Shown: positions 8,301 to 40,304 of the stretch, in pieces
Position numbering within the stretch: the first letter of the stretch is position 1
Layout of the letters: each line of letters opens with the position of its first letter
Sequence record: PZ502447.1
Length of the DNA stretch: 46,837 bases
Origin: a phage
Direction: 5' to 3' (one strand)
Translations under genes and position numbers: made by a program
Notes under the pieces: model-generated
Seen by the model: only the letters and a program-made list of their open reading frames with translations
Told to the model about the DNA's origin: nothing
The model's database searches: none

Positions 8301-8347
8301 ACTATAAGCCATCCTTGGCGGCGCGTCTTTAGCAAAACGTGCTATTT
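8301..8347 (-). promoter_or_regulatory. conserved promoter module (inverted-repeat motif plus -10-like TATAGT)
   Basis: Minus-strand AATAGCACGTTTTGCTAAAGAC, then about 22 nt, then TTATAGT, then leader ACGAAAACGAGAGG, then ATG of 7919..8272; overlaps the terminase large subunit stop. Confidence 0.5.
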
Positions 8348-12145: not shown

Positions 12146-12348
12146 AACTCCTCAGTTATAAGCATCTTGCCACAATCTTTGCACTCGTAGAACGCACATG
12201 TTTCACCTATTGATACAATTGGTTTTGTTGACTCGTGGTATGCAGAGCTTATCGCCTTAATGTCAAAATCGTTAATGATTGATGTGAACACGTAAATGTA
12301 ATGATGTTTGTGATTATTGTCGTTATCACTCATAAAGGCTATTCCCAT
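12142..12348 (-). CDS. hypothetical protein
   Basis: 68 aa ORF, Cys-rich C-terminus (CAFYECKDCGK); its first 8 codons and RBS are duplicated at 12454-12485. Confidence 0.45.
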   Translation of the reverse strand: MGIAFMSDNDNNHKHHYIYVFTSIINDFDIKAISSAYHESTKPIVSIGETCAFYECKDCGKMLITEEF

Positions 12349-12357
12349 TCTCTAACC

Positions 12358-12473
12358 TAATTCAATGTAAATATGAAGAAAATCATCCCAATTGCCGTAG
12401 CCATAGCCAATCCGATGGCGATCAGAGTTAGTACTAAATCAATGATAATATCACTCATAAAGGCTATTCCCAT
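12358..12473 (-). CDS. small hydrophobic protein (38 aa, predicted membrane)
   Basis: Hand-translated ORF MGIAFMSDIIIDLVLTLIAIGLAMATAIGMIFFIFTLN, below the ORF-track size cutoff; shares its start module with 12142..12348. Confidence 0.35.
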
Positions 12474-12687
12474 TCTCATCATGACCCACACGCCCTCGAC
12501 GATAGCCCGCTATCCACACAAACTTATCACGTGCGATTATCGTGGATACCGGCCCCCATATCTGAGTGATAAGCGCCGCAACAACCTTATCATCTTTCTT
12601 TTTTGCGCCCAATTTGCCGTATTCGTCATTCAGCTTGTCAGCCTGTCGCTTAACTGCGTTAAAGTATGCGTCGTCTAACCCGAACAT
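12451..12687 (-). CDS. hypothetical protein
   Basis: 78 aa ORF, ATG with GAGAGG SD located in a conserved leader downstream of a promoter module. Confidence 0.5.
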   Translation of the reverse strand: MFGLDDAYFNAVKRQADKLNDEYGKLGAKKKDDKVVAALITQIWGPVSTIIARDKFVWIAGYRRGRVGHDENGNSLYE

Positions 12688-15884: not shown

Positions 15885-15974
15885 ATTCGTTACTCCTGAT
15901 TGGTTGCTCTTCGTTAAGATGAAACCATGGTATCATGAATATACGCGTTATCAAGTGTTATGTTGTGTTTATAT

Positions 15975-16030
15975 CTGCATTGGTTACGCTTTTTGACCTC
16001 TCAGCCCAGCTATAGCTGGTGTAATTACCC
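15975..16030. repeat. duplicated control-region block 1 (copy A) with perfect palindrome CCAGCTATAGCTGG
   Basis: ATTGGTTACGCTTTTTGAC...GCCCAGCTATAGCTGG; near-identical block at 35223-35280. The 14 bp perfect palindrome is at 16006-16019. Confidence 0.6.
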
Positions 16031-16145
16031 TGTGTAAGATTTTACGCGGATTCGCCGGGGGTATGCATATGTATCTATATAGATAAAATTAGTAGTTTTC
16101 ATAGAAAAACTATCGACCCATCCATACGACCAATCTACACCATAT

Positions 16146-16212
16146 ACATACATATATATAATAATAATAATAATATAGTAAAAGGTTGATATATATAGAT
16201 ATTATTATGTAA
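16146..16212. repeat. duplicated control-region block 2 (copy A) with (TAA)n microsatellite
   Basis: ATATATATAATAATAATAATA...AGTAAAAGGTTGATATATATAGATATT..ATGTAAC; near-identical block at 35404-35468, at the same roughly 120 bp spacing from block 1. Confidence 0.6.
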
Positions 16213-16483
16213 CCATTGCGTAATCTCGCGTGGTAGGCGTGTATGATTCTTCGGAAGCGCACCTCATATACACACCATAACTTCGATAACGTGTATATCC
16301 AAATTGGCTCAGCAAGAATCAAAATCAACTTGTATGGTAGTTCATCCACCATTCATTCACCCCACATCAATCATTGCAAATTCTGCAACAATCAAAAACA
16401 TCATTGCATTCCATGCAATATTGCTATATGTGCAATAATCATGATAATCATTGCAATAGCTGCAACAATAGATAAATCCAACG

Positions 16484-17150: not shown

Positions 17151-17314
17151 TGCTTTTACCATCTGAGATAAACTATTTCGATCTGGAAATAATTAGTGCT
17201 TACAGCGGAAAGGGTTGGCCTTGCGGGGACTGGTTTAACGAGGACCTGCTTGAGTCTCACGAGATTATGTTGAAGGCAATTGAGAAGGCCAGAAAAAATA
17301 GCACTAATTGCTAA
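17150..17314 (+). CDS. hypothetical small protein (54 aa)
   Basis: Hand-translated ORF MLLPSEINYFDLEIISAYSGKGWPCGDWFNEDLLESHEIMLKAIEKARKNSTNC; its stop lies inside the promoter motif. Confidence 0.35.
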   Translation: MLLPSEINYFDLEIISAYSGKGWPCGDWFNEDLLESHEIMLKAIEKARKNSTNC

Positions 17315-17373
17315 AACTCACCGCCACGGATGGCGTATATTTACTCCATCGAAACGAAAGAGAGCAAGAGATC
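17297..17373 (+). promoter_or_regulatory. conserved promoter module
   Basis: AATAGCACTAATTGCTAAAAC, 22 nt, TATATT, then leader CCATCGAAACGAAAGAGAG, then ATG at 17374. Confidence 0.55.
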
Positions 17374-24890: not shown

Positions 24891-24974
24891 TTTCTTTCTC
24901 TCTTTGTGTGTTTCGTTTCGATGAGTTTATAATACACCAACTCACCAATTCGTCTTTAGCAATTCGTGCTATTT
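24891..24974 (-). promoter_or_regulatory. conserved promoter module
   Basis: Minus-strand AATAGCACGAATTGCTAAAGAC, 22 nt, TATTAT, then leader CATCGAAACGAAACACACAAAGAGAG, then ATG at 24890. Confidence 0.55.
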
Positions 24975-27480: not shown

Positions 27481-27954
27481 ATGTGTGAAATTGACAAGCG
27501 AACTATCAACGGCAATAACGGAACCATCCGCACGCAAGACAAGAAACAGCGCAAACGACCGTCAGGCTACTACGTATTGAAAGATGAAGTAAAGGCTGGG
27601 CTACGAGCTCGTCTGGAGATGGTTCTTGATTTCTACGGCACGAAGGCCAATATCGCCAAGCAGTTAAATGTATCTCACCAGACTGTAGAGCAATGGTTTG
27701 ATCGCGGGATGATTTCGGCTCGAGGTGCCCAGAGGGCTCACAATGCATACAAGCGAAATAAGGAAGGCTTTAGAGCTACGTTCTGCCGACCAGACCTGCA
27801 ATTCGACGGAAACGGTAAGCCATTAACGCTTAGATGCAAGAAACGCCATATGCTGCGGGTTGTTACAGAAGCTGAACTAGCAACAAAGCCACCATGTCGA
27901 CCATGGCGCAAGAATAAGATTGCCAACGAAGCAGCACGAAAAGCTAAAGATTAA
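27481..27954 (+). CDS. HTH DNA-binding protein (putative transcriptional regulator)
   Basis: 157 aa, ATG with GAGGTAA SD; helix-turn-helix-like segment TKANIAKQLNVSHQTVEQWFDRG; basic N- and C-termini. Confidence 0.5.
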   Translation: MCEIDKRTINGNNGTIRTQDKKQRKRPSGYYVLKDEVKAGLRARLEMVLDFYGTKANIAKQLNVSHQTVEQWFDRGMISARGAQRAHNAYKRNKEGFRATFCRPDLQFDGNGKPLTLRCKKRHMLRVVTEAELATKPPCRPWRKNKIANEAARKAKD

Positions 27955-28005: not shown

Positions 28006-28485
28006 ATGAACTGGCATGATTATTTTTACTATGTAGATGGCAAATTGCATTGGAAGATTAGCACTGCAAGACGTGTTAAGGTTGGCGATGAGTGCAACTC
28101 ACTATCTACATCTGGCTATTACAAAGTGTCTGTTAATGGCTTTAGGACTTATGTACATAGAGTTGTGTGGGAGATGTTTAATGGAGAACTTCAAAATGGC
28201 GACTACATTGATCATATAAACCATAACAAATTAGATAACAGAATAGAAAACCTAAGAGTAACAACAAATCAAGGTAACTCAAGAAATTGCAAGCTTAGCG
28301 TTTTATCAACAACTGGTTATTGTGGAGTAGCAAAGCTAAATCACGGAAAATTTAAGGCTCACATCAAGGTTGACGGTAAGCAGCTACACCTTGGGAACTT
28401 CGATACTCCAGAGCAGGCGTATAAAGTAAGAATTGAAGCAGAGAGAAAATGCAACTTTCACGAAAATCACGGGTTAAGCAAATGA
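28006..28485 (+). CDS. HNH homing endonuclease (AP2-HNH type)
   Basis: 159 aa; IDHINHNKLDNRIENLR HNH core; N-terminus MNWHDYFYYVDGKLHWK paralogous to the HNH at 9916; inserted directly upstream of primase with an ATGA overlap. Confidence 0.85.
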   Translation: MNWHDYFYYVDGKLHWKISTARRVKVGDECNSLSTSGYYKVSVNGFRTYVHRVVWEMFNGELQNGDYIDHINHNKLDNRIENLRVTTNQGNSRNCKLSVLSTTGYCGVAKLNHGKFKAHIKVDGKQLHLGNFDTPEQAYKVRIEAERKCNFHENHGLSK

Positions 28486-29405
28486 ATTACGATAAGAATG
28501 AAGTTATACCTAAGATGGCCGGATTGTGGAAATCATTTTATGCAAAGGAACTTGGTTGGAATGATAGACACCTAAGTAAGAAGCACGGACCATGCCCATA
28601 CTGCTTTGGCACTGACAGATTCAGATTTACCGACGAAATAGGCAGTGAAAAAGGGAATGGCGCGGCAGTTTGTTCGAAATGCGGAAGTGACTCCGGTATA
28701 GGATGGGTCATGAAGTGCACTGGATCGTCCTTCGCAGATTCAGTAAATTTGCTTGGTGACTGGCTGAACTTAACACCAATTGAGGTTATAGTTAAAGCAA
28801 ACAAGCAAGCATCAAGAACCCAGCTCTACAAAATGGGCGCCCAGATTGACCACGAAAGATGTTTAGAGATTATGGAAAGAACAGAAAGAGTAGAATCAAC
28901 TCCACTCAGTATATACGAGGGTATCTATAGCGAATTTGGTTTTGATGTTGGCAGGACGAAATCAGGCGAACTAATACACGCAGTACCGTGCTTTATGGCT
29001 TATAGTGACGGCATATCAGATGATATGTGCAATGTAATGTTTATCAATGAAGATGGAGATGTTAGCTATGCTGCAAAAGATTATACTCGCCAGTCTGTTT
29101 CTATTATTGGCACCTTTAAAGATGATGAGTACGCTTATCTGGTCGATAATTGGATTGATGGTGTTCGCGTTCATCTTGCTACTGGAAATCGCTGCGTGCT
29201 TGTTTGCCACTCCAGCTACAACATGGAAATGGTTGCTTATGCGCTTATGAACTACAAGTTACGCGTCGCTTGTACTCGCAACTCTTTTGATTTACTTGCC
29301 GTTGCTGACGATCGCAATCTTGATATTGTAATTCCAAATGATGGTAATTTTTTCAAGTCAGGCATAAGAAAGAGAATATACAAGGCAAACGAATTACTAG
29401 ACTAA
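28482..29405 (+). CDS. DNA primase (zinc-finger type)
   Basis: CxxC...CxxC zinc-binding motif (CPYCFG...CSKCGS) near the N-terminus. Start placed at ATG MNYDKNEV overlapping the HNH stop; the ORF track starts it 33 nt earlier. Confidence 0.55.
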   Translation: MNYDKNEVIPKMAGLWKSFYAKELGWNDRHLSKKHGPCPYCFGTDRFRFTDEIGSEKGNGAAVCSKCGSDSGIGWVMKCTGSSFADSVNLLGDWLNLTPIEVIVKANKQASRTQLYKMGAQIDHERCLEIMERTERVESTPLSIYEGIYSEFGFDVGRTKSGELIHAVPCFMAYSDGISDDMCNVMFINEDGDVSYAAKDYTRQSVSIIGTFKDDEYAYLVDNWIDGVRVHLATGNRCVLVCHSSYNMEMVAYALMNYKLRVACTRNSFDLLAVADDRNLDIVIPNDGNFFKSGIRKRIYKANELLD

Positions 29406-29426
29406 CCTCCTTCGGGAGGTTTTTTT
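29406..29426 (+). terminator. intrinsic terminator after primase
   Basis: Hairpin CCUCC-UUCG-GGAGG followed by a U7 run, immediately after the primase stop. Confidence 0.65.
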
Positions 29427-29492
29427 ATACCTGAAAGATGATACAATCCACTTTAGCAATTAGTGCTACTTTACAAATGGAGACTTTACACA

Positions 29493-32021
29493 ATGGCAAT
29501 TTATGACTTAGGAACAGCGTCGCTAGCCGCAAATGGCGAGGTTACTGGCGTCGGGACAACATGGAAAGCACCACTTACACTGATTCGTGTAGGTGCAACC
29601 ATTATTTTTAAAACCAGTCCACTTAAAATTTATACCATCTCTGAAATCATCAGCGACACTCAGATTAATGTTTACAACCCTAATTCTGAAACTGTTCCTG
29701 CCGGAACTGGTTACGCGATTCTTGCTCACGATGGCATTACCGTTCAGGGTTTAGCTCAGGATGTTGCTGAGACTCTGCGTTACTATCAGTCAAAGGAGAC
29801 TTCTATTGAAAGTTTGCTGCAATTTATCGGGCAAGATAATTTCGATTGGCCTCGCTTCGAGCAATTAGCAAACCAATCAGTAACAGGGGCTGCCGAGTCT
29901 TTAGCTAGCCAGATTGCTGCCGCAGAGAGCGCCGCTACTGCCGTTAGCGCAAGGGATACAACCACATCAGCGAGAGATGCTACTATTGAGGCAATTAATA
30001 GTGCTGGTGATGCTGGCACAATGGTAACTCTTGCCAATATGGGTATCGGTGGCTCGCTTACACCTCAGTTGACAGAACTTGACTGGAATACGTTTGATTT
30101 CAAATCAGGAGCTAGATACCTATGCCAAAAGTCAGCAATGATCAACGCTCCAGAGGTGATAAATATAACCTACTCCGATAGCACGCTTTGTGCGATTGAG
30201 GTTAAGTCAGCAAGGGGGATTACTGGTGTTAAGAACATACAAGTGTCAGCATCAACCGGATCCGATAATACGTACAGGGTGATTGATTTAACTCAGACTG
30301 GCACGGCACCAAACAAAACTTACTATTCAAGAGAGGCTCTTTATGTCGCATCAGGAAGTCAGGTTGGCGGCGCTAGCGCCCAGCGAGTAAGAGGCTTGCT
30401 TGATGTTTACTCAAAAAATGAGACTTTTCAAAAATCATTGAATTTATCTGATGTTGCAGATAAAGGATTGGCAAGAACCAACCTTGATGTTTACTCAAAG
30501 GGTGAGGTGTCATCAATTTTAAATACAGATTCAAAAAGCACATCAAGCTATAACGGATCAATACCTTCAGCAATAGAGGCTGCTGGTAATGGTGGCTCAG
30601 TAGTTATAAGCCCAGGAACTTATGAGAGTAATAACTACTATTTTGCTGGCAGGAACATATCAGGCTCTGGATACAATACTGTAATAAGTGTTAAACCTTT
30701 TGAAACCGGACTCACCTCAACGCTATCGGTTCCGCACTGGAGGCAAAAGCATTTATCCGATTTACAGTTTACAGGGACGACAATACAAGCAAATAACGGT
30801 TTTCAATTCCCAGATGACCCTTATGCCGGTAGGGTTGTTATGGATAGGTTGTACTTTAATGACCTGGATGTTGGCATAAGGAAAAATGCTGGCAACATTG
30901 GAAATACCTACAGAAACGTAAGTATTAGAAATGCGAATTACGGGTATCGAGCCAAAGCTCATGACGAAATGCATATAGGAGCGGACACTTTATACGGGTA
31001 CCACTCAGATACAATCTCTCAATATTCAGTAATGCTAGATGCGACAAGCACAAGTAGCGCAAAGAACCCTGGCGCTGGAGGAATTGGTGGGTGGTGGATT
31101 AGGGATTCAATAATGGAGGCCTCTGCTGGCGGCGGTATAAGGTTAAAGAATAAACCTGGAGATTGCCCAACATCACCTTGCGGATTGTCTAACGTATGGT
31201 TTGAAGCGATAGCAACTGGGGGGGCAATTAACGTAGGTGATGGAGCTGAGCTACCAAGGGTTTTGAAGCTTATTGATACGTCTGTTTTCTTTGCTGAGCA
31301 CTCCTACATTAATAACATTGAGTTGTCTAACTCAAGCCTTGTTACTTACGGTTGCAGGTTTGATAACGCTGATGGGCATCAAGATTTCTCTCTTGATTCG
31401 AACAGTATTATTTTTGCTAAGGATGCATACCTGAATGGCTCTTCAACATCAAACGTTATAGTTGAGTCACTGGTATCACAGACAGCCAAGATAACGGGTA
31501 CATCTGACTTATCTGTTAGAGGATATGTTACTAAGGGTCGAGTTTTTAATCCCGATTCCGGAACTGTTTTAGTCAGGAGGCCTTTTGGTACTGGTGGGAA
31601 CAACTTTGGTGGAACAGGGTCGGCAAGTGAAGGTTCTGATACAAGGGGTATACACTCGCAATCATCTGGATACTACGAATTGGCTGGTGCGGCTAATTAC
31701 GAATTGATAAATGGTGGCTTTAATATAACTTCCGGCAAATGGTATGCTTGGGGTATTTCTGCAAACAGGATTCAAGGCGGTGCTGATGGTATTATAAACA
31801 TTTTTGGTAGCGCATCATTAGGCCGTGTGTTTACTGAGGGTGGTAAGTGGGTTCATACATTTGGAGTTGGTCAGGCTTCGGTTTCTGGCGTTGCAAACCT
31901 TAACATTAACCTCAATGGATTAACTGGTATGGTATTAAGCCTTGCTGATTATTTTGTTGTAGAATTTGATAATCAAAGGGACGCCTTGATATTTGCAAAC
32001 TCAAGAGTTTCTCTTGCATAA
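29493..32021 (+). CDS. tail fibre / tailspike protein with probable beta-helix domain
   Basis: About 842 aa from ATG MAIYDLG (GGAGAC SD); Gly/Asn/Ser/Thr-rich with repetitive N-x-x-I/V segments typical of right-handed beta-helix fibres; Ala-rich coiled segment near the N-terminus. Confidence 0.6.
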   Translation: MAIYDLGTASLAANGEVTGVGTTWKAPLTLIRVGATIIFKTSPLKIYTISEIISDTQINVYNPNSETVPAGTGYAILAHDGITVQGLAQDVAETLRYYQSKETSIESLLQFIGQDNFDWPRFEQLANQSVTGAAESLASQIAAAESAATAVSARDTTTSARDATIEAINSAGDAGTMVTLANMGIGGSLTPQLTELDWNTFDFKSGARYLCQKSAMINAPEVINITYSDSTLCAIEVKSARGITGVKNIQVSASTGSDNTYRVIDLTQTGTAPNKTYYSREALYVASGSQVGGASAQRVRGLLDVYSKNETFQKSLNLSDVADKGLARTNLDVYSKGEVSSILNTDSKSTSSYNGSIPSAIEAAGNGGSVVISPGTYESNNYYFAGRNISGSGYNTVISVKPFETGLTSTLSVPHWRQKHLSDLQFTGTTIQANNGFQFPDDPYAGRVVMDRLYFNDLDVGIRKNAGNIGNTYRNVSIRNANYGYRAKAHDEMHIGADTLYGYHSDTISQYSVMLDATSTSSAKNPGAGGIGGWWIRDSIMEASAGGGIRLKNKPGDCPTSPCGLSNVWFEAIATGGAINVGDGAELPRVLKLIDTSVFFAEHSYINNIELSNSSLVTYGCRFDNADGHQDFSLDSNSIIFAKDAYLNGSSTSNVIVESLVSQTAKITGTSDLSVRGYVTKGRVFNPDSGTVLVRRPFGTGGNNFGGTGSASEGSDTRGIHSQSSGYYELAGAANYELINGGFNITSGKWYAWGISANRIQGGADGIINIFGSASLGRVFTEGGKWVHTFGVGQASVSGVANLNINLNGLTGMVLSLADYFVVEFDNQRDALIFANSRVSLA

Positions 32022-32026
32022 AAAAA

Positions 32027-32050
32027 GCCCCGAAAGGGGCTTTATCTTTT
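32027..32050. terminator. bidirectional intrinsic terminator
   Basis: Hairpin GCCCC-GAAA-GGGGC flanked by an A-run upstream and a T-run downstream; between the plus-strand stop at 32021 and the minus-strand stop at 32052. Confidence 0.65.
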
Positions 32051-32051
32051 A

Positions 32052-32537
32052 TCAGTAGTAAAGATGTTCCGCTTGCTTTCTTGCCTTTAATGCGGACTCA
32101 AACGTTTCGAATCGTCCTAGATGTATTTTTCTACCGTTTACAGTTATGGACGCATCGTATTTTCCCTTATTAAAATGTACACCACCGCACCCCGTCTTAT
32201 TGTTTACTCTTACACCTAAATTGTGCATGTTGCCTGTTCTGTTGGTTTTCAGTAGGTTTGCGTAGGCATTATTTGCTCTATTCCTGTCAATATGGTCAAT
32301 TTCAATATCACCACTCAAAGAACCTTCAACGAAGGCAACCGCAAGCCTGTGAGCTTGGAATCGCTCTCCGTTGATGTTTATGCCTATGTATCCATTCCTA
32401 AGCGAACCTGAATTCGAACCTACATCTACACGCCGCGATGTGGGAATAATCCATGAAAAGATCCCTGATTCTGTACCGTAGGATAGGTGACGCATTGCTG
32501 CGTCAACCACATCTTTTGTTATGTCTTTGTATTTCAT
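32052..32537 (-). CDS. HNH homing endonuclease
   Basis: 161 aa; IDHIDRNRANN HNH core and NKTGCGGVHFNKGKYDASITVNGRKIHLGRFETFESA AP2-like tail. Confidence 0.8.
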   Translation of the reverse strand: MKYKDITKDVVDAAMRHLSYGTESGIFSWIIPTSRRVDVGSNSGSLRNGYIGININGERFQAHRLAVAFVEGSLSGDIEIDHIDRNRANNAYANLLKTNRTGNMHNLGVRVNNKTGCGGVHFNKGKYDASITVNGRKIHLGRFETFESALKARKQAEHLYY

Positions 32538-32540
32538 GCG

Positions 32541-32969
<429 letters not shown>

Positions 32970-33009: not shown

Positions 33010-33660
33010 TTAGAATGTATCGATTTCTTGAGATTGCACTTCAACTTTTTCTTCTTGAACAGACTTTTGTGCAACCTGCTTAGGTTTTGCTGGGTTAAAG
33101 CCATTAGTTGCATTGGCCTGAATCTCTGCCTTGCGCTCGATAATGTGAGGCTCAAGCACTAACCAGCCGGCTGAATCAAGTGACTGCTTCGCCTCTTTGT
33201 AAACATCACGGAGGTCATCAAGAGTACTGCACTTAGCCAAGTCTTTCTTGAATGAGTTGATGCCTTTAACTGCTAACTGACCATCATCATCTGCCTGGCT
33301 TAAACCTAACGCCGCTGTGATTGCGTAACGGCGAGCGTATGTAAGTGATGACCCATAACCTTGAGCATCTTGCTTACTGATTGGGACTATGGTCAGGAAA
33401 CTAACCCACTCTCCAGATTCTGCATGGTAAACTGTTGTTTCAACCTTAATACGAGTGCTTACATCATCATCAATCATCGACTGAAACATCACCAGTCCGC
33501 TATCAGCCAATCCTGGCTCTACAGCTGCTAAAACATCATCTAAAGTAGCGTACTTATTCTTGAGGTGTGAGTTCTGCTTAGACTTTTCAGCCTTAGCAAA
33601 CTTTGATTTAGCCTCGAATAACGCCTTCAATACTTGCTTGTTTTGCTCAGAAGTTTTCAT
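33010..33660 (-). CDS. erf: Erf-family single-strand annealing protein
   Basis: About 216 aa from ATG MKTSEQ (GGGGA SD; the ORF-track start is a GTG inside the promoter -10). Erf-like core ATLDDVLAAVEPGLADSGL. Confidence 0.7.
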   Translation of the reverse strand: MKTSEQNKQVLKALFEAKSKFAKAEKSKQNSHLKNKYATLDDVLAAVEPGLADSGLVMFQSMIDDDVSTRIKVETTVYHAESGEWVSFLTIVPISKQDAQGYGSSLTYARRYAITAALGLSQADDDGQLAVKGINSFKKDLAKCSTLDDLRDVYKEAKQSLDSAGWLVLEPHIIERKAEIQANATNGFNPAKPKQVAQKSVQEEKVEVQSQEIDTF

Positions 33661-33737
33661 TCCCCATCTCTCTTTCGTTTCGATGGGGTAATGATACCCC
33701 ACCTGTTAATTTTGTCTTTAGCAATTAGTGCTATTTT
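33661..33737 (-). promoter_or_regulatory. conserved promoter module for recombination genes
   Basis: Minus-strand AATAGCACTAATTGCTAAAGAC, 22 nt, TATCAT, then leader CCCATCGAAACGAAAGAGAG, then ATG of erf; overlaps the exonuclease 3' end. Confidence 0.55.
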
Positions 33738-34702
33738 AGAAGTTCTTGATACTGCTTACTTACCCACTCAGGAATCATCAAATCTTGCTCTGTAATCCCA
33801 TTACTATATCCAGGCCAAACATCAAGCTCCTTACACTGCTTGTATGTTGCCAGCGCCTCACAATATTGTAAGCGCCCAATGCGAAGTTGCTCATCTGTAA
33901 GCGTGTAGCACATAGGTAAGTATGGCTCAGTTTTCTCCTGCGCCAGGAGTCGAACCACAACCTTACGCTTCTCGCTAAATGCCTTCACGAACAAGTCACG
34001 CTGAAGGCTCATTTTGCACAGGTATCCATGGTCATAAGCTGACTTGCCAAATCCTCTCGGGCTTGCGTCCGCCGTCGTCTTGTAGTCAGTAATGAAAACC
34101 ACGCCATCAACAACATCCACGTGATCAAGCCTAACCTTAACACCACACCCAAGAATCTCACCAAAGATTGATAGCTCTTTCTGTGCTGTTGGTGAGTTAA
34201 TAATCGCATCGTAAGCTGGGATATTAGTCAGAACCTCGCGCATTGAGATTACCTTATCGTAATCTTTCGCAGTAACGAGCTCTTTGCCACTAATCAACGC
34301 CTCAGCGCTCTCCTGCTGCTCAATTAACCATTTAACAGGCCAATCCTCACCACACTTATACATCATCTCTACAAGCTCGTTATAACCCTTCCCTGACGTG
34401 CCTGAAACTCCAACTTTTTTAAGCGCTGCGGATAAAGCCGTTTGGCTAGTAATCAATCCTTCCACTTCGTCAAAGTCAGTAGCTCGCATGTATGTTGAGT
34501 CAAACACCTCGCGCTCTAGCATCATGCAGTGACTTAGTGTGCCAAACTTAAGTGCTGCGCTAGAGTTATTGCGCTGCTTAAACTTCCATTTAGCTGGTGA
34601 GGTAGCAAGAATCTCAGCCAGTGAAGAGCCAGAGATATGGTCTTGCTCTTCGTGATAGGATTCATTTGTTAGCTCGTCGTTCGTATAAACTTTAAATGTC
34701 AT
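33731..34702 (-). CDS. PD-(D/E)XK exonuclease (recombination exonuclease)
   Basis: 323 aa; nuclease core around VVFITDYKT (D..DYK); upstream partner of erf and ssb in one leftward operon. Confidence 0.65.
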   Translation of the reverse strand: MTFKVYTNDELTNESYHEEQDHISGSSLAEILATSPAKWKFKQRNNSSAALKFGTLSHCMMLEREVFDSTYMRATDFDEVEGLITSQTALSAALKKVGVSGTSGKGYNELVEMMYKCGEDWPVKWLIEQQESAEALISGKELVTAKDYDKVISMREVLTNIPAYDAIINSPTAQKELSIFGEILGCGVKVRLDHVDVVDGVVFITDYKTTADASPRGFGKSAYDHGYLCKMSLQRDLFVKAFSEKRKVVVRLLAQEKTEPYLPMCYTLTDEQLRIGRLQYCEALATYKQCKELDVWPGYSNGITEQDLMIPEWVSKQYQELLK

Positions 34703-35090: not shown

Positions 35091-35222
35091 TACTCTATCT
35101 CTCTACGGTTGTTTTCTTTCGATGCGTTAATGATGCCGCACGCAAGACACACAGTCCAATTGGTATCACCGATTAATTAATCAAGTATACGCGTATAAAT
35201 CCGTAACTACGTGTAGACATTT

Positions 35223-35280
35223 CTATTGGTTACGTTTTTCACTGCCTTAGCCCAGCTATAGCTCAATGTAAATGGTGCGT
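35223..35280. repeat. duplicated control-region block 1 (copy B)
   Basis: ATTGGTTACGTTTTTCAC...GCCCAGCTATAGCT, matching 15975-16030 (the palindrome is partly degenerate here). Confidence 0.6.
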
Positions 35281-35403
35281 ATATCGTGTATACCGATCTT
35301 GGCGGATGGTGCATAGGTATGGGTGCCGCGCAATACTGTATAAAATCACATGATATAAAAATTATAACCGGAACACTCAAGAACAGTAGTTACATGATAT
35401 ACA

Positions 35404-35468
35404 CAGTAATATATATAATAATAATAATAAGAGTAAAAGGTTGATATATATAGATATTTTAATGTAAC
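35404..35468. repeat. duplicated control-region block 2 (copy B) with (TAA)n microsatellite
   Basis: ATATATAATAATAATAATAAGAGTAAAAGGTTGATATATATAGATATTTTAATGTAAC, matching 16146-16212. Confidence 0.6.
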
Positions 35469-35554
35469 TATGGCGTATCAAGGCGTAACTAGGCGTATAC
35501 GATTTCCCGCGGATGCATATGGTATACATCGAGTTACATCGGTTACGTGTAACC

Positions 35555-35640: not shown

Positions 35641-35886
35641 ATGACTAACTTAATCAAACTTTCAATCATCGCCGCAGCAGCAATCATGATGGTAGGTTGT
35701 TCTTCTGCTCCGCGACCAGACGGATGGTGTGCAACGCAAGCAAACGGCGTGTGCGTGGCTAAATGGGAAAATGGTGTGGTTGTACCGTCTGGTGAAGTTG
35801 ATGTGCGATACGCTGGTATTGAGAGCAAGGCTGGCGGCGGTTACGGTGGCTCTGTTGCTGACCATGGGTCTAAGGAGTGGAAATAA
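35641..35886 (+). CDS. small lipoprotein, candidate Cor-like superinfection exclusion protein
   Basis: 81 aa from ATG MTNLIK (AAGGAA SD); signal peptide ending in lipobox-like MVGC; Gly-rich mature part; located beside the J/receptor-recognition region as cor genes are in related phages. Confidence 0.5.
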
Positions 35887-36848
35887 TGCCTCAAGGAATA
35901 TTGATTGACCTTAATGATGGAAGGCCACCTATGGAAATAACGGCAGGATTAAGAGCGCCCGCTGTGACTGGCTCAATAAATACAAATGGACTTTCGACGC
36001 CAGCATCATCATGGGATTTTGGTTTAACCATGTCCCCAGGCTCAACAGCATTCTGCCTTCCAACAAAGGCTGTGCACGTTGACGCTTATGATGTTGTACC
36101 TGAAGTTTATTATATGAACGGGTTCCAGAAGGTAAATGACGGAACTGGCAGGATAAAACTTAGTAACTTCAATGGCGCAAGAGGTCGTATAATTGACTTT
36201 GCTGGCAATTGCTTTGAGATACTAGCTGCTTCATCCTCTTCAAGCCCGGGCATACTTGTTGAGAACTCAACTGACTTCCTGGCAATTTCAAGTAATTCGC
36301 GGTTAATGTCTGCGGCGTGGGTTGGTGGAATACAGGTTAACGGCGCCGCCTCACTACCAGTCAGTGGGATTCCATTTGGTAAATGGGATAACCCAAACGT
36401 TTCTCTGGAGAGCGACGGTAATACAATTTGGTGCCGCAACATAAACTACAGCGGCATAGATGACGTTGCAGCAAGTACTTACGTACAGTTAGTGATATTC
36501 AGGAATGACCCTCCAGTAGCTGGCCCAGGACTCACAATGTCTAATAGTTCTGGACAGATTGTTTTTTCAAGCGTCAGGCGACCGTTCGTGCTTGGTGGCT
36601 TTATACAAATAACCAATGGTTTCCAGTCAATAAATGGAGGGTTCTTCCCACTGCTCAGGTGCGGCGCTACAACAAGAGTTACTGGAGGGTATAACAACTT
36701 AAGGTACAAGGGAATATGCATGTCTGGTGGTGCCGTAAGGGCAGTTCCAGGCACTGTGATAGGGAACTACTCAACGCAGACGGGAGCCCAATTCCCATTC
36801 GACACAAACATATCAATGGCTCTACCATTCATACCAAACTTCTACTAA
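35877..36848 (+). CDS. hypothetical protein, candidate receptor-binding / tail-tip accessory protein
   Basis: 323 aa Gly/Asn/Ser-rich ORF translationally coupled to the lipoprotein gene and convergent with J. The function is inferred from position only. Confidence 0.35.
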
Positions 36849-36878: not shown

Positions 36879-39800
36879 TTACCACACTCCAACTACAACC
36901 CTTCCACCATTCGGTAAATTAACTGTAATTCCATTATTGTTAATCTGAACAGTGTTGTTGGTTCCGTTAAACGCAAAGTTGCCGTTACTTGCGTACAGAC
37001 TACCCCTTACAGTTGCATTGTTAAGTTCCGCACTGCCTGACTTATCAATGGCCCAACCCTGAGAACCAGCCACGTAGTTATTAGATTGAATCCGGTTACC
37101 AATCTTCGCGTTAGTGATTGAACCATCCTGAATCACTGCGCTTTGAATGAATACCTGATTACCTTCAACTACGAAAGGCAATGACCACTGACCGGATCCA
37201 GAGCTAATGCCGTTACTGATTGCGAACCTGTTAGCATCGAAAATGAACTGACTACGAACGTTGCCACCAGATCCGGTTAGTTCCATGCTCATCCCTGAAT
37301 TGTACTCAACCCCATTGTAAGTAAGACCCAGCTTAATGCCGTACTGCGCACCAATTGAATCAGCTGTAACGTAAGTATCCAGCTTCTCATTTAAAGCAGC
37401 TTCATTCTCACCGAGCCTTGCAGATAAAGCAGTGTCCGCAGTGGTCCTTGCTTGCGTTTCTTCCGCTAGCGCCGTATCAATCCTTGTCAACGAAGCCACA
37501 ATCTCATCATCAATCTGCGCTTTAAGCTGCGTCAGAGCCTCTACGCGAGCCATTTCTTCGTCGGCGATAAGATTCACAGCCTGAACAAATTCGGCCTTCC
37601 TCTTGCCGTTTTCCTTCGTCATTCTACGCACGTCACCATCATTAGCCAGGGCGTTCTCAATTATTGATTCCGCTTGCGCCTGAATAGCTCCGTTTGACTC
37701 AATGGCATTCTGTTGGAGATACTTGAACCCATCTGAGTTTTCTATATCAACCTTAATATCACCAATGATTGACGACACATCATCGCTTGCCATACCCCTT
37801 ACAAAATCAGTCCATGGTGAGACGTTACCAATCTTGTCAATCAGTCGCGCCCTGTACCAGATAACCTTTCCTGCCGGTAATGTAGTGTGCCAATACTCGT
37901 AACCCGGGTAAGGAACTAGCGTTAACAAACTGGCGTTCTCTGGTGAGTAAGTACCATCACCATTGTCGGCTACTTGCTGCAATTCAGTGTATGACGTATC
38001 GGCTGAGTTTTCAGGGAAACCCCACTTAACCCTAATGCCAAATATTTCATCATCTGAAGCTGTGATTACCGTAGGCTCAGACGGCGTTCCAATTTTACCA
38101 GTTAGGCTTGCTGAAACAATGTCAGACCATGCGGATACGTTTTCAGTATCAGAAACAGCCCTCACGCGAACCTGATAAATACCAGCATAAATACCTTCAA
38201 TATCAACTTCTGTGTTTGCTGTGCGCGGTACGTTAATCCAGTTTCCGTTCTCCTTACGCCACTGTACCGTGTAAGTCTTGGCGTACTGAACTTTGTCCCA
38301 GGTGATTACCATTGTTTCAACTGATAAACCCTGCACAACCTTGCTGTAGCTGCTCACCTGAACATTTTCTGGGGCAAGTAGCGTGTCAGGTTCAACGATT
38401 GACGATGGCCTATCCTGAATGTTTACGCCGTAATCAATTTCGTCGTATTTATTCGGGTCGTACTCGACTGCCGTAATGCTGTAACCGAACGCATCGTCTC
38501 CATCGCTGTCTGCTTTTTGAATCCCGGTCACAACATATTGCTGAAGAGCAAGATTTTCCTTATCAATCGCAAATACTGTGTCAGGCTGAGGAGTAAAGCT
38601 AAACGCTGTATTAAGTTGCAGCGTCATACCATCTTCAGATACAGATGCAATGGTCCTGTACTCTGGCATTCCATCAGGCTTGTTTATTAGAATCCTGTCG
38701 CCAGCAGTAGCATCAATCTTAAATGGCACAAAAACTTGCAACCCACTTACTGACTCGATACGACCAGAAAGGTTAAGGGTGTAGTTGCTAGACCATGCCT
38801 GGTCATTAACTGCAATAACCTCACCAATCATTGGAATCATACCTTCCAGACCAGTAGTGAAACTAATAGTCTCGCTGCGAATGTTCGTCTTTAATAACCA
38901 GCGCCCGCGGCGGTTTGCCTCACTCCTGCGAGTACATCCAATAGCTGTAAGGTCGACCGGGTTGTAACCAAAACGCCTTGTTGCCTCTAACTCGAATACT
39001 GGCTCAACATCCTGTTGGTATGAGTTTTCAACGTCATCAAACTGAACGTTGGCAACCGTGTAAAGTGACTTATCGCTACCAAATGTACGGTTGAACAATC
39101 CATCAACAACGTTGTCATTGGTGAATACGTACGATGGTTGACGCGGCTTATCGACAACAATCCCTATCTGCTCGCCGTCATAGAATGTCAGCCCACGGAA
39201 GATAGAGCAAATATCACGGATTACCTGATATGCTTCAACTTTCTGCTGAATGACAACATCACACAGGTAGCGCGGCTCAACTCCACCCTTACCATCTGGA
39301 ACCATCTGGTCACAGAATTGCGCCGCCTCATACAGACCCCACTTATCAATAGTAATGCCAAGCTCTCGCTGGTCAAGTCCGTAACGCTGATTCGTCACCA
39401 AGTCGTAAAGAACCCACGCCGGGTTATTGGAATACGCCATCTTAAAGGTGCCGTTCCAGGTTCCGCTGTAAGTCCTTGTCTCTGGGTTGTAGTTAGTTGG
39501 AACGCGAATCAACTTCCACTTCTTCTTGATTGAAATCGTCGGGATTCCGTTAGGGAAGAGGTCAGAACTGAACTCAACGTAAACCAGCGCTGTAAGTGGG
39601 TAGCGGAATTTAGCATCAATTACTTCCTGATAGGTCGTAATTTGCATGTCGTTAACCAGCGTCGAACTTTCTGAATCTGCCGTGATCTTACGAACCCTCA
39701 CCAACGCACTCGAGAACTCAGCAGGAAGGTTAACCCTGATACTTCTGTCGTACCCGCTAGTTGTCTTGCCATTAGCTACTCCGCGCGTGTACTCAGTGTA

Positions 39801-40304
39801 TGTAGCGCCATCAACGGACAGGTCAATCGCATACTCGCAAGTGGTACCGTTAAGATCTCCGTTACTTTCCTGATTAATCAGACGAGGCCAAAACAGCTTA
39901 ACCCTAATTGCTGATAGCTGGGTGTTATTAACAGCAATGATGTAAGGAGTTGAGTTTTTAATCTCCCTGTTCACTTGCACTTCCGAGTTAGCACCCTCTA
40001 GCCCGGCAATGTAATCCTGACTCTGTGTGCCAGGGCGAAACTCTGCCGTTACACCCTCGTAGTTGTATGTGCCATTCTGGTTCTGTACAGGAACGTCAGC
40101 AAGGTAAAGGTCCTTTAGGGAGAATGAGCTATCAACCTCACCATCAGAAACAGCTAGCAAAACCTTAACCTTGTTTACGGATATCAGGTTATCAGGCTGC
40201 TCTACAGGTTGGTGCTGCTTTGGCTGTCCGCCCTTACTTCCATAAATCTTAATTTCTTCCGCCATATCACATAGCTCCGCATTTGTTTTGACCATTTGTG
40301 CCAT
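36879..40304 (-). CDS. central tail fibre / host specificity protein (lambda J-like)
   Basis: 1141 aa; segment NYNPETRTYSGTWNGTFKMAYSNNPAWVLYDLVTNQRYGL...DKWGLYEAAQFCDQMVPDGKGGVEPRY closely parallels the conserved region of lambda J. The first ATG lacks an SD, so the true start may be the internal ATG MAEEIK (40265) with a GGAG SD. Confidence 0.85.
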   Translation of the reverse strand: MAQMVKTNAELCDMAEEIKIYGSKGGQPKQHQPVEQPDNLISVNKVKVLLAVSDGEVDSSFSLKDLYLADVPVQNQNGTYNYEGVTAEFRPGTQSQDYIAGLEGANSEVQVNREIKNSTPYIIAVNNTQLSAIRVKLFWPRLINQESNGDLNGTTCEYAIDLSVDGATYTEYTRGVANGKTTSGYDRSIRVNLPAEFSSALVRVRKITADSESSTLVNDMQITTYQEVIDAKFRYPLTALVYVEFSSDLFPNGIPTISIKKKWKLIRVPTNYNPETRTYSGTWNGTFKMAYSNNPAWVLYDLVTNQRYGLDQRELGITIDKWGLYEAAQFCDQMVPDGKGGVEPRYLCDVVIQQKVEAYQVIRDICSIFRGLTFYDGEQIGIVVDKPRQPSYVFTNDNVVDGLFNRTFGSDKSLYTVANVQFDDVENSYQQDVEPVFELEATRRFGYNPVDLTAIGCTRRSEANRRGRWLLKTNIRSETISFTTGLEGMIPMIGEVIAVNDQAWSSNYTLNLSGRIESVSGLQVFVPFKIDATAGDRILINKPDGMPEYRTIASVSEDGMTLQLNTAFSFTPQPDTVFAIDKENLALQQYVVTGIQKADSDGDDAFGYSITAVEYDPNKYDEIDYGVNIQDRPSSIVEPDTLLAPENVQVSSYSKVVQGLSVETMVITWDKVQYAKTYTVQWRKENGNWINVPRTANTEVDIEGIYAGIYQVRVRAVSDTENVSAWSDIVSASLTGKIGTPSEPTVITASDDEIFGIRVKWGFPENSADTSYTELQQVADNGDGTYSPENASLLTLVPYPGYEYWHTTLPAGKVIWYRARLIDKIGNVSPWTDFVRGMASDDVSSIIGDIKVDIENSDGFKYLQQNAIESNGAIQAQAESIIENALANDGDVRRMTKENGKRKAEFVQAVNLIADEEMARVEALTQLKAQIDDEIVASLTRIDTALAEETQARTTADTALSARLGENEAALNEKLDTYVTADSIGAQYGIKLGLTYNGVEYNSGMSMELTGSGGNVRSQFIFDANRFAISNGISSGSGQWSLPFVVEGNQVFIQSAVIQDGSITNAKIGNRIQSNNYVAGSQGWAIDKSGSAELNNATVRGSLYASNGNFAFNGTNNTVQINNNGITVNLPNGGRVVVGVW

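Follow-up and report, generated by a model that had tools for sequence, protein, structure and literature searches.

In the Drexlerviridae the lateral tail fibre locus lies between the primase/helicase and the recombination genes, as set out in the BASEL study, and within the main lateral fibre gene conservation is limited to the extreme 5' end (PMC8594841, S1C Fig). How a depolymerase of this kind of virion is built is seen in the cryo-electron microscopy of the DpK2 tailspike, where an extended triple-helix bundle belongs to the N-terminal domain, a beta-helix forms the centre and a further domain closes the C-terminus. The dimensions of this tailspike fit the appendages of about 18 nm on the RAD2 virion; in the general scheme given there for depolymerase receptor-binding proteins (RBPs) the N-terminal domain is the tether to the tail (PMC8552709). 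The gene considered here lies on the plus strand at 29493-32021 of the phage sequence PZ502447.1, the whole analysed stretch of 46,837 nucleotides (nt) being called the window, and in all probability it is the lateral (side) tail fibre gene of a T1-like siphovirus (Drexlerviridae, Braunvirinae) with a product built as a tailspike.

The likeness to the Drexlerviridae locus is close in position, in the conserved extreme 5' end and in the hypervariable rest. Upstream is a primase gene (Zn_Ribbon_Prim, a zinc-ribbon domain; 28449-29405, plus strand), and downstream on the minus strand come an HNH gene, a single-stranded DNA-binding (SSB)-like gene, ERF (33010-33702) and a PDDEXK exonuclease (33731-34702), so that the gene sits between primase/helicase and ERF/exonuclease/SSB genes, a position for the lateral fibre that is conserved family-wide in the relatives compared. 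As in the Drexlerviridae locus, the gene stands away from that of the J-like central fibre, at 36879-40304 here, and from its RBP locus, since the DUF6453 gene adjoining the J-like fibre (35877-36848) occupies the RBP locus of small siphoviruses. Nothing essential differs from the described locus, the window having a single gene flanked by two HNH insertions that its closest relatives lack. Over the 24 kb around the fibre gene the identity is 91.5% to the Escherichia phages ES and AN_ECEAS (Drexlerviridae, Braunvirinae) and 77-85% to other Braunvirinae-like Drexlerviridae, and the window is that of a Drexlerviridae (Braunvirinae, Rtp-like) coliphage of T1-like kind. PHROG matches carrying a functional annotation are all to 'tail fiber protein' families (E 3.6e-163 and 2.5e-134), and close homologues have already been deposited as tail fibre protein.

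The open reading frame (ORF) is real, running from ATG 29493 to the stop at 32021 for 842 amino acids (aa), with the longest frame in the ORF listing (29463..32021) beginning at an upstream GTG. The ATG was chosen over GTG 29463, which was rejected as the start, because the homologues and the solved structures begin at the methionine of MAIY/MALY; the product starts MAIYDLGTASL, its residue 1 aligns with the start of the solved depolymerases 7vyv and 7lzj, and the annotated orthologue starts in AN_ECEAS and vB_Ec-G8 (hereafter G8) agree. Glycine (10.9%), serine (10.8%), threonine (8.1%) and asparagine (6.9%) sum to 36.7% of the protein, the top value among the 17 window ORFs of more than 200 aa. 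The initial annotation, made from the letters alone, had called an 842-aa plus-strand gene between the primase and the recombination module, Gly/Asn/Ser/Thr-rich, a second fibre distinct from the J-like one, with a probable beta-helix and a likely part in host range as side tail fibre or spike; its reading of frame, neighbours, composition and separateness is borne out by the above, and its beta-helix and its host-range role hold up in what follows. Alignment with AN_ECEAS and G8 together with a sliding DNA identity profile sets four modules in the protein, the last of which, the head, divides in two:

29493..32021, plus strand: lateral tail fibre / tailspike gene, 842 aa plus stop codon
29493..29945, plus strand: N-terminal virion-anchor domain and then the start of a long helix, aa 1-151, by homology to 7vyv, 7vz3 and 7lzj
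29946..30383, plus strand: exchangeable middle alpha/beta knob-like domain, aa 152-297
30384..30488, plus strand: conserved linker (VRGLLDVYSKNETFQKSLNLSDVADK..ARTNL) with a recombination breakpoint inside, aa 298-332, from alignment and the sliding identity profile
30489..31649, plus strand: right-handed parallel beta-helix, the body that binds and probably cleaves the glycan, aa 333-719 (limits approximate), from the AlphaFold2 model and Foldseek
31650..32018, plus strand: C-terminal beta-sandwich domain, aa 720-842 (limit approximate), long antiparallel strands in the AlphaFold2 model at a predicted local distance difference test score (pLDDT) of about 90

The anchor is what would tie the protein to a virion. 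Residues 1-181 match the N-termini of Depo32 (7vyv, 7vz3) and DpK2 (7lzj) at E 1e-34, both of these being K2 capsule depolymerase tailspikes, from the Klebsiella phages GH-K3 and RAD2 respectively, which are T1-like weberviruses. Besides the homologous anchor they have matching folds and share the overall plan of anchor and helix bundle, beta-helix and C-terminal domain, and the long helix at aa 119-170 of the AlphaFold2 model is compatible with the triple-helix bundle of DpK2. A putative structural role at the tail tip is supported by homology to the two depolymerases. Their heads differ from that of the window protein, there being no detectable sequence similarity and 9-12% identity in structural alignments, and it is very unlikely that the window protein acts on their substrate, the Klebsiella K2 capsule. 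Conserved in the window phage, AN_ECEAS and G8, the anchor was found by tblastn in 901 phage records from Escherichia, Klebsiella, Shigella, Salmonella and others, T1 included, and the remainder of the protein is hypervariable, its head recurring in only 2 of the 85 phage records that share the 5' ~1 kb of the fibre gene at the DNA level. Residues 3-98 of the anchor gave weak tblastn similarity only to the lambdoid side tail fibre proteins of HK633 and HK446 (33-35% identity, E 1e-8 to 1e-10).

The head, in turn, has the fold of the tailspike class. An AlphaFold2 model, built as a monomer on 63 sequences, reaches a pLDDT of about 90 over aa 350-838 and shows numerous short strands followed by the beta-sandwich, and Foldseek against the PDB matched it with probability 1.0 (E 2e-9 to 2e-6) to the tailspike proteins (TSPs) K2-2 TSP, CBA120 TSP4 and Sf6 TSP and to Depo32 and DpK2, so that the central domain was found to be a right-handed parallel beta-helix. 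Foldseek also gives jelly-roll carbohydrate-binding module matches (CBM22, CBM16 and CBM4) over 130-165 aligned columns, and on the model these would belong to the C-terminal domain, aa 720-842. Nine acidic residues of the helix (D498, D538, E542, E571, D595, E602, D624, D627 and D635) are at least 95% conserved among homologues of about 45% identity, a pattern that seems to fit an active site without proving one. Catalytic residues or a mechanism are not transferable from elsewhere because the head has no Pfam domain and no solved sequence relative. A C-terminal Peptidase_S74 chaperone, as in fibres of the T5 pb1 type or the endosialidase type, was absent from the Pfam scan of the fibre protein, and some other proteins with the same anchor region carry one (PF13884).

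Anchor and head have travelled separately. The tail fibres of ES (OR466728) and AN_ECEAS (PP944860) resemble that of the window in locus, architecture and length (844 against 842 aa) and their heads are 96% identical over aa 333-842, but their middle domain is only about 35% identical to aa 152-297 of the window protein, which in anchor and middle is instead about 100% identical to G8, a phage with an unrelated head. On DNA a tract of about 900 bp (29540-30440) is about 100% identical to G8 within flanks of 92-97% in the sliding identity profile, and similarity changes from G8-like to AN_ECEAS-like at aa 316-336, in the linker (aa 298-332, VRGLLDVYSK...NLSDVADK..ARTNL). Tract and switch together are the signature of recent recombination, and the window allele is a recent mosaic in which a G8-type anchor and knob are joined with a head of the ES/AN_ECEAS type.

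Elsewhere the head family is found at 45-47% identity over 98% of aa 345-842 (E ~1e-123 to 1e-126; HMMER E ~1e-125 to 1e-132) in Kayfunavirus LM33_P1, Kuravirus ES17 and the Kagunavirus-like siphoviruses Golestan and phiEc3/4. The head is thus homologous over its full length to receptor-binding heads of the LM33_P1 and ES17-TFP type, and in contrast the anchors of the LM33_P1, ES17 and Golestan/phiEc3-type tailspikes are entirely different (T7-type, PF18668 and P22 head-binding). Many further relatives are proteins of 640-660 aa with P22 head-binding (PF09008), TSP1/Gp66-type (PF18668) or T7-type (PF03906) N-termini, and conversely proteins with the same Drexlerviridae anchor bear other heads (PF12708, PF13229, PF27114 and PF13884). 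A sugar-recognising head built as a beta-helix has passed between phages that are not related to one another. Because anchor-sharing phages carry unrelated heads, the protein is a probable determinant of host range, and the choice of E. coli surface glycan, and with it of the strains open to the phage's approach, is very probably made by the head. Such a strain-deciding head matters for the choice and the engineering of therapeutic phages, and the three-way mosaic with its breakpoint in a 35-residue linker, taken with a head family on at least four other anchor types, amounts to a map of swap points. Locus, anchor and modular exchange are all already described for T1-like phages and the gene is a standard component of them; current understanding is left unchanged, and what is of practical use is the mapping of the swap points and, for regulation, a small lead on a 21-nt repeat, discussed below.

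How the parts might act together can be proposed as follows. The N-terminal ~150 residues would dock the protein, presumably a homotrimer by analogy, on the tail tip, with the helical bundle, the knob-like domain and the conserved linker forming a shaft. The C-terminal 510 residues, a pectin-lyase-like beta-helix with a beta-sandwich, would recognise a host surface polysaccharide and probably cleave it, a specific O-antigen being the likeliest target because of the phages and the anchors that the head family accompanies. Glycan binding and cleavage would bring the virion past the glycan layer as far as the outer membrane; there the RBP associated with the J tip (the DUF6453 protein) may engage the terminal protein receptor. 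Recombination in the conserved anchor and linker sequences exchanges the specificity modules.

Several points weigh against so full a reading. The fold was modelled as a monomer, and its N-terminal 180 residues are of low confidence; neither the whole protein nor the head by itself matched a family in Pfam scans; and the head-family profile run against the PDB matched only the anchors of other members (TSP1-N and P22 head-binding) and nothing for the head. The nearest characterised relatives of the head are only 45-47% identical, and the specificities of LM33_P1 and ES17 (O25b O-antigen and heparan sulfate) are not transferable because the identity is only at that level; at 45% identity the glycan specificity of those proteins may differ from that of the window protein. 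LM33_P1 is said, in work of Dufour in 2016, to depend on O25b lipopolysaccharide. Its host in the literature is an O25b:H4 ST131 strain, and for the structure or enzymology of its tailspike the literature gave citations alone and nothing on structure or enzymatic activity. For ES17-TFP a glycan array showed binding of heparan sulfate, and a bacterial substrate was not reported (PMC7885116). The BASEL authors themselves state that O-antigen use by Drexlerviridae lateral fibres was never directly demonstrated (PMC8594841).

One reading beside the cleaving tailspike, though we regard it as improbable, is that the beta-helix head only binds glycan without catalysis, as a reversible adhesin concentrating virions on the cell or on mucus. 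It would suit the lack of any catalytic motif or Pfam hydrolase or lyase family among those detected, the ES17 homologue (47% identical), which was shown only to bind heparan sulfate with depolymerase activity not detected (PMC7885116), and the 2025 BASEL paper, in which many O-antigen-dependent phages use non-enzymatic fibres. What speaks for cleavage is that the nine acidic residues of the helix are so conserved among divergent members of the family and that the nearest folds are enzymes, namely tailspike endoglycosidases, lyases and epimerases. Just as improbable in our estimate is that not the O-antigen but a capsule or other exopolysaccharide (K-antigen, colanic acid) is the target, which would make the protein a capsule depolymerase; here the closest head family includes LM33_P1 with its O25b:H4 ST131 host, and the family also rides on anchors of the P22 head-binding type that are typical of O-antigen tailspikes, so that O-antigen stays the preferred target.

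Less credible again is the idea that the spike is an essential terminal RBP, itself triggering irreversible adsorption and DNA ejection, in place of a role as accessory fibre for the primary receptor. The 2025 BASEL paper does suggest that a single tailspike serves both steps in some O-antigen-dependent siphoviruses, but those single-tailspike phages encode the spike directly downstream of gpJ, and the window retains a separate J-like fibre and the DUF6453 gene at the RBP locus, which in the Drexlerviridae is the arrangement paired with porins or LptD as terminal receptors (PMC8594841). That the protein is a soluble, non-structural polysaccharide enzyme outside the virion, as its place among replication and recombination genes and far from the tail gene cluster could suggest, is hardly believable given an N-terminal domain homologous to that of DpK2, a tailspike whose dimensions fit the RAD2 tail appendages, the weak anchor similarity to lambdoid side tail fibre proteins and the family-wide position of the gene for the lateral fibre.

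The locus appears to be an autonomous transcription unit, in the order terminator, extended −10 promoter, reversed 21-nt repeat, Shine-Dalgarno sequence, gene and bidirectional terminator. Its elements other than the gene are:

29404..29421, plus strand: Rho-independent terminator ending the primase transcript (AACCTCCTTCGGGAGGTT then T7), −12.1 kcal/mol, z −2.9
29439..29447, plus strand: extended −10 element TGATACAAT, read in the sequence, no recognisable −35
29449..29469, minus strand: copy of the 21-nt T1-like intergenic repeat (aaATAGCACnnnTTGnTAAA; palindromic core TAGCA-N5-TGCTA at 29454-29468), beginning 39 nt before the ATG
29480..29483, plus strand: Shine-Dalgarno sequence GGAG, read in the sequence and kept in the alignment of relatives
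32024..32043, both strands: bidirectional terminator (−15.1 and −14.7 kcal/mol, z about −4), serving both the fibre gene and the minus-strand genes that converge on it

The flanking terminators and the upstream inverted-repeat copy of the initial annotation are therefore there, both terminators as stable hairpins, the stem and T-run of the upstream one being conserved in eight relatives, and the inverted repeat as the known 21-nt T1-like repeat. Its statement that the usual −10 and leader are missing stands as far as the canonical arrangement of repeat, −10 and leader CATCGAAACGA goes and fails as to the −10, for the gene has its own. The element TGnTAnnAT occurs at the equivalent position in all 14 relatives compared, which span Braunvirinae, Nouzillyvirus, Tunavirinae (T1), Rogunavirinae, Tempevirinae and Webervirus and include T1, KP36, vojen and phiJLA23. 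No promoter before the fibre gene came out of a scan with the sigma-70 −35/−10 consensus; only inspection of the sequence and comparison with the relatives brought out the extended −10, which would seem to be the promoter of the gene.

The 21-nt repeat itself, aaATAGCACnnnTTGnTAAAA, was described for phage TLS and is said to occur also in T1 and Rtp, its function being listed as an open question (PMC11447400). The TLS repeat has the same consensus as that of the window, and what sets the fibre-gene copy apart is that it is reversed, close to the ATG and downstream of the −10. The core TAGCA-N5-TGCTA with at most one mismatch occurs 15 times in the window against 2.2 expected by chance, and its form at the fibre gene is TAGCAATTAGTGCTA. 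There are 16 good copies of the whole repeat, for example 8325-8345 (minus), 17298-17318 (plus), 24952-24972 (minus) and 33714-33734 (minus), and 15 of them are oriented with transcription and have an ATG-initiated ORF 61-84 nt downstream. Most of these 15 have a −10-like hexamer 22-23 nt after the repeat, and several also the leader CATCGAAACGA and then a Shine-Dalgarno sequence and ATG; between repeat and leader a stem is often formed, with a sequence that varies among the copies. The sixteenth, at the fibre gene, lacks the leader, and its reversed copy is present in 11 of the 14 relatives.

At the other promoters about 42 nt separate the middle of the repeat from the inferred start downstream, the usual spacing of a class II activator site, and at the fibre gene the predicted transcription start falls about where the reversed repeat begins. 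A hairpin in the RNA of the 5' untranslated region, formed by the inverted repeat, was considered and rejected, the fold (−4.2 kcal/mol, z +0.67) being no better than shuffled sequence; it is disfavoured also by the relative 12469I, which breaks one stem pair without compensation. Because the fold is no better than shuffled, the repeat is more likely a DNA site than an RNA element, and because its core is palindromic a dimeric protein is suggested as the binder. Tentatively, then, and as an unlikely reading in our judgement, the reversed repeat may be an operator for a dimeric phage protein that activates most promoters (the repeat near −42, at about 15 others) and represses or delays the side-fibre gene. 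If true, this would give a testable function to the repeat whose role the TLS authors leave open. A candidate for the binder of the palindromic core is the helix-turn-helix (HTH) protein encoded at 27481-27954 (plus), which has weak Cro/HTH matches below the Pfam cut-offs and is annotated as a transcriptional regulator in G8. What is mildly new in all this concerns regulation only, namely the family-wide extended −10 before the lateral fibre gene with the 21-nt repeat reversed downstream of it. On the minus strand TATAAA stands at 29424-29429, 24 nt beyond the reversed repeat, and from the sequence a transcript of that strand, antisense to the primase gene at its 3' end, may arise there.

The primase-fibre segment is flanked by two HNH_3 endonuclease genes, at 28006-28485 (plus) and 32052-32537 (minus), with 41% mutual identity and both absent from the equivalent positions in AN_ECEAS and G8. 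Both have the look of inserted homing-endonuclease genes and could favour exchange of the fibre region. The SSB-like protein (32541-32969, minus) gave no Pfam match; it ends in an acidic DIPF tail and has 16 consecutive glutamines, encoded by a trinucleotide-repeat tract, followed by further glutamine-rich sequence. Two related AT-rich intergenic segments, 15965-16222 and 35211-35477 (74-76% identical, repeat families D5 and D10), each immediately precede a copy of the 21-nt repeat on the plus strand, at points of diverging transcription, and a perfect 29-nt direct repeat is present at 12324-12352 and 12449-12477 with a spacing of 125 nt (family D19).

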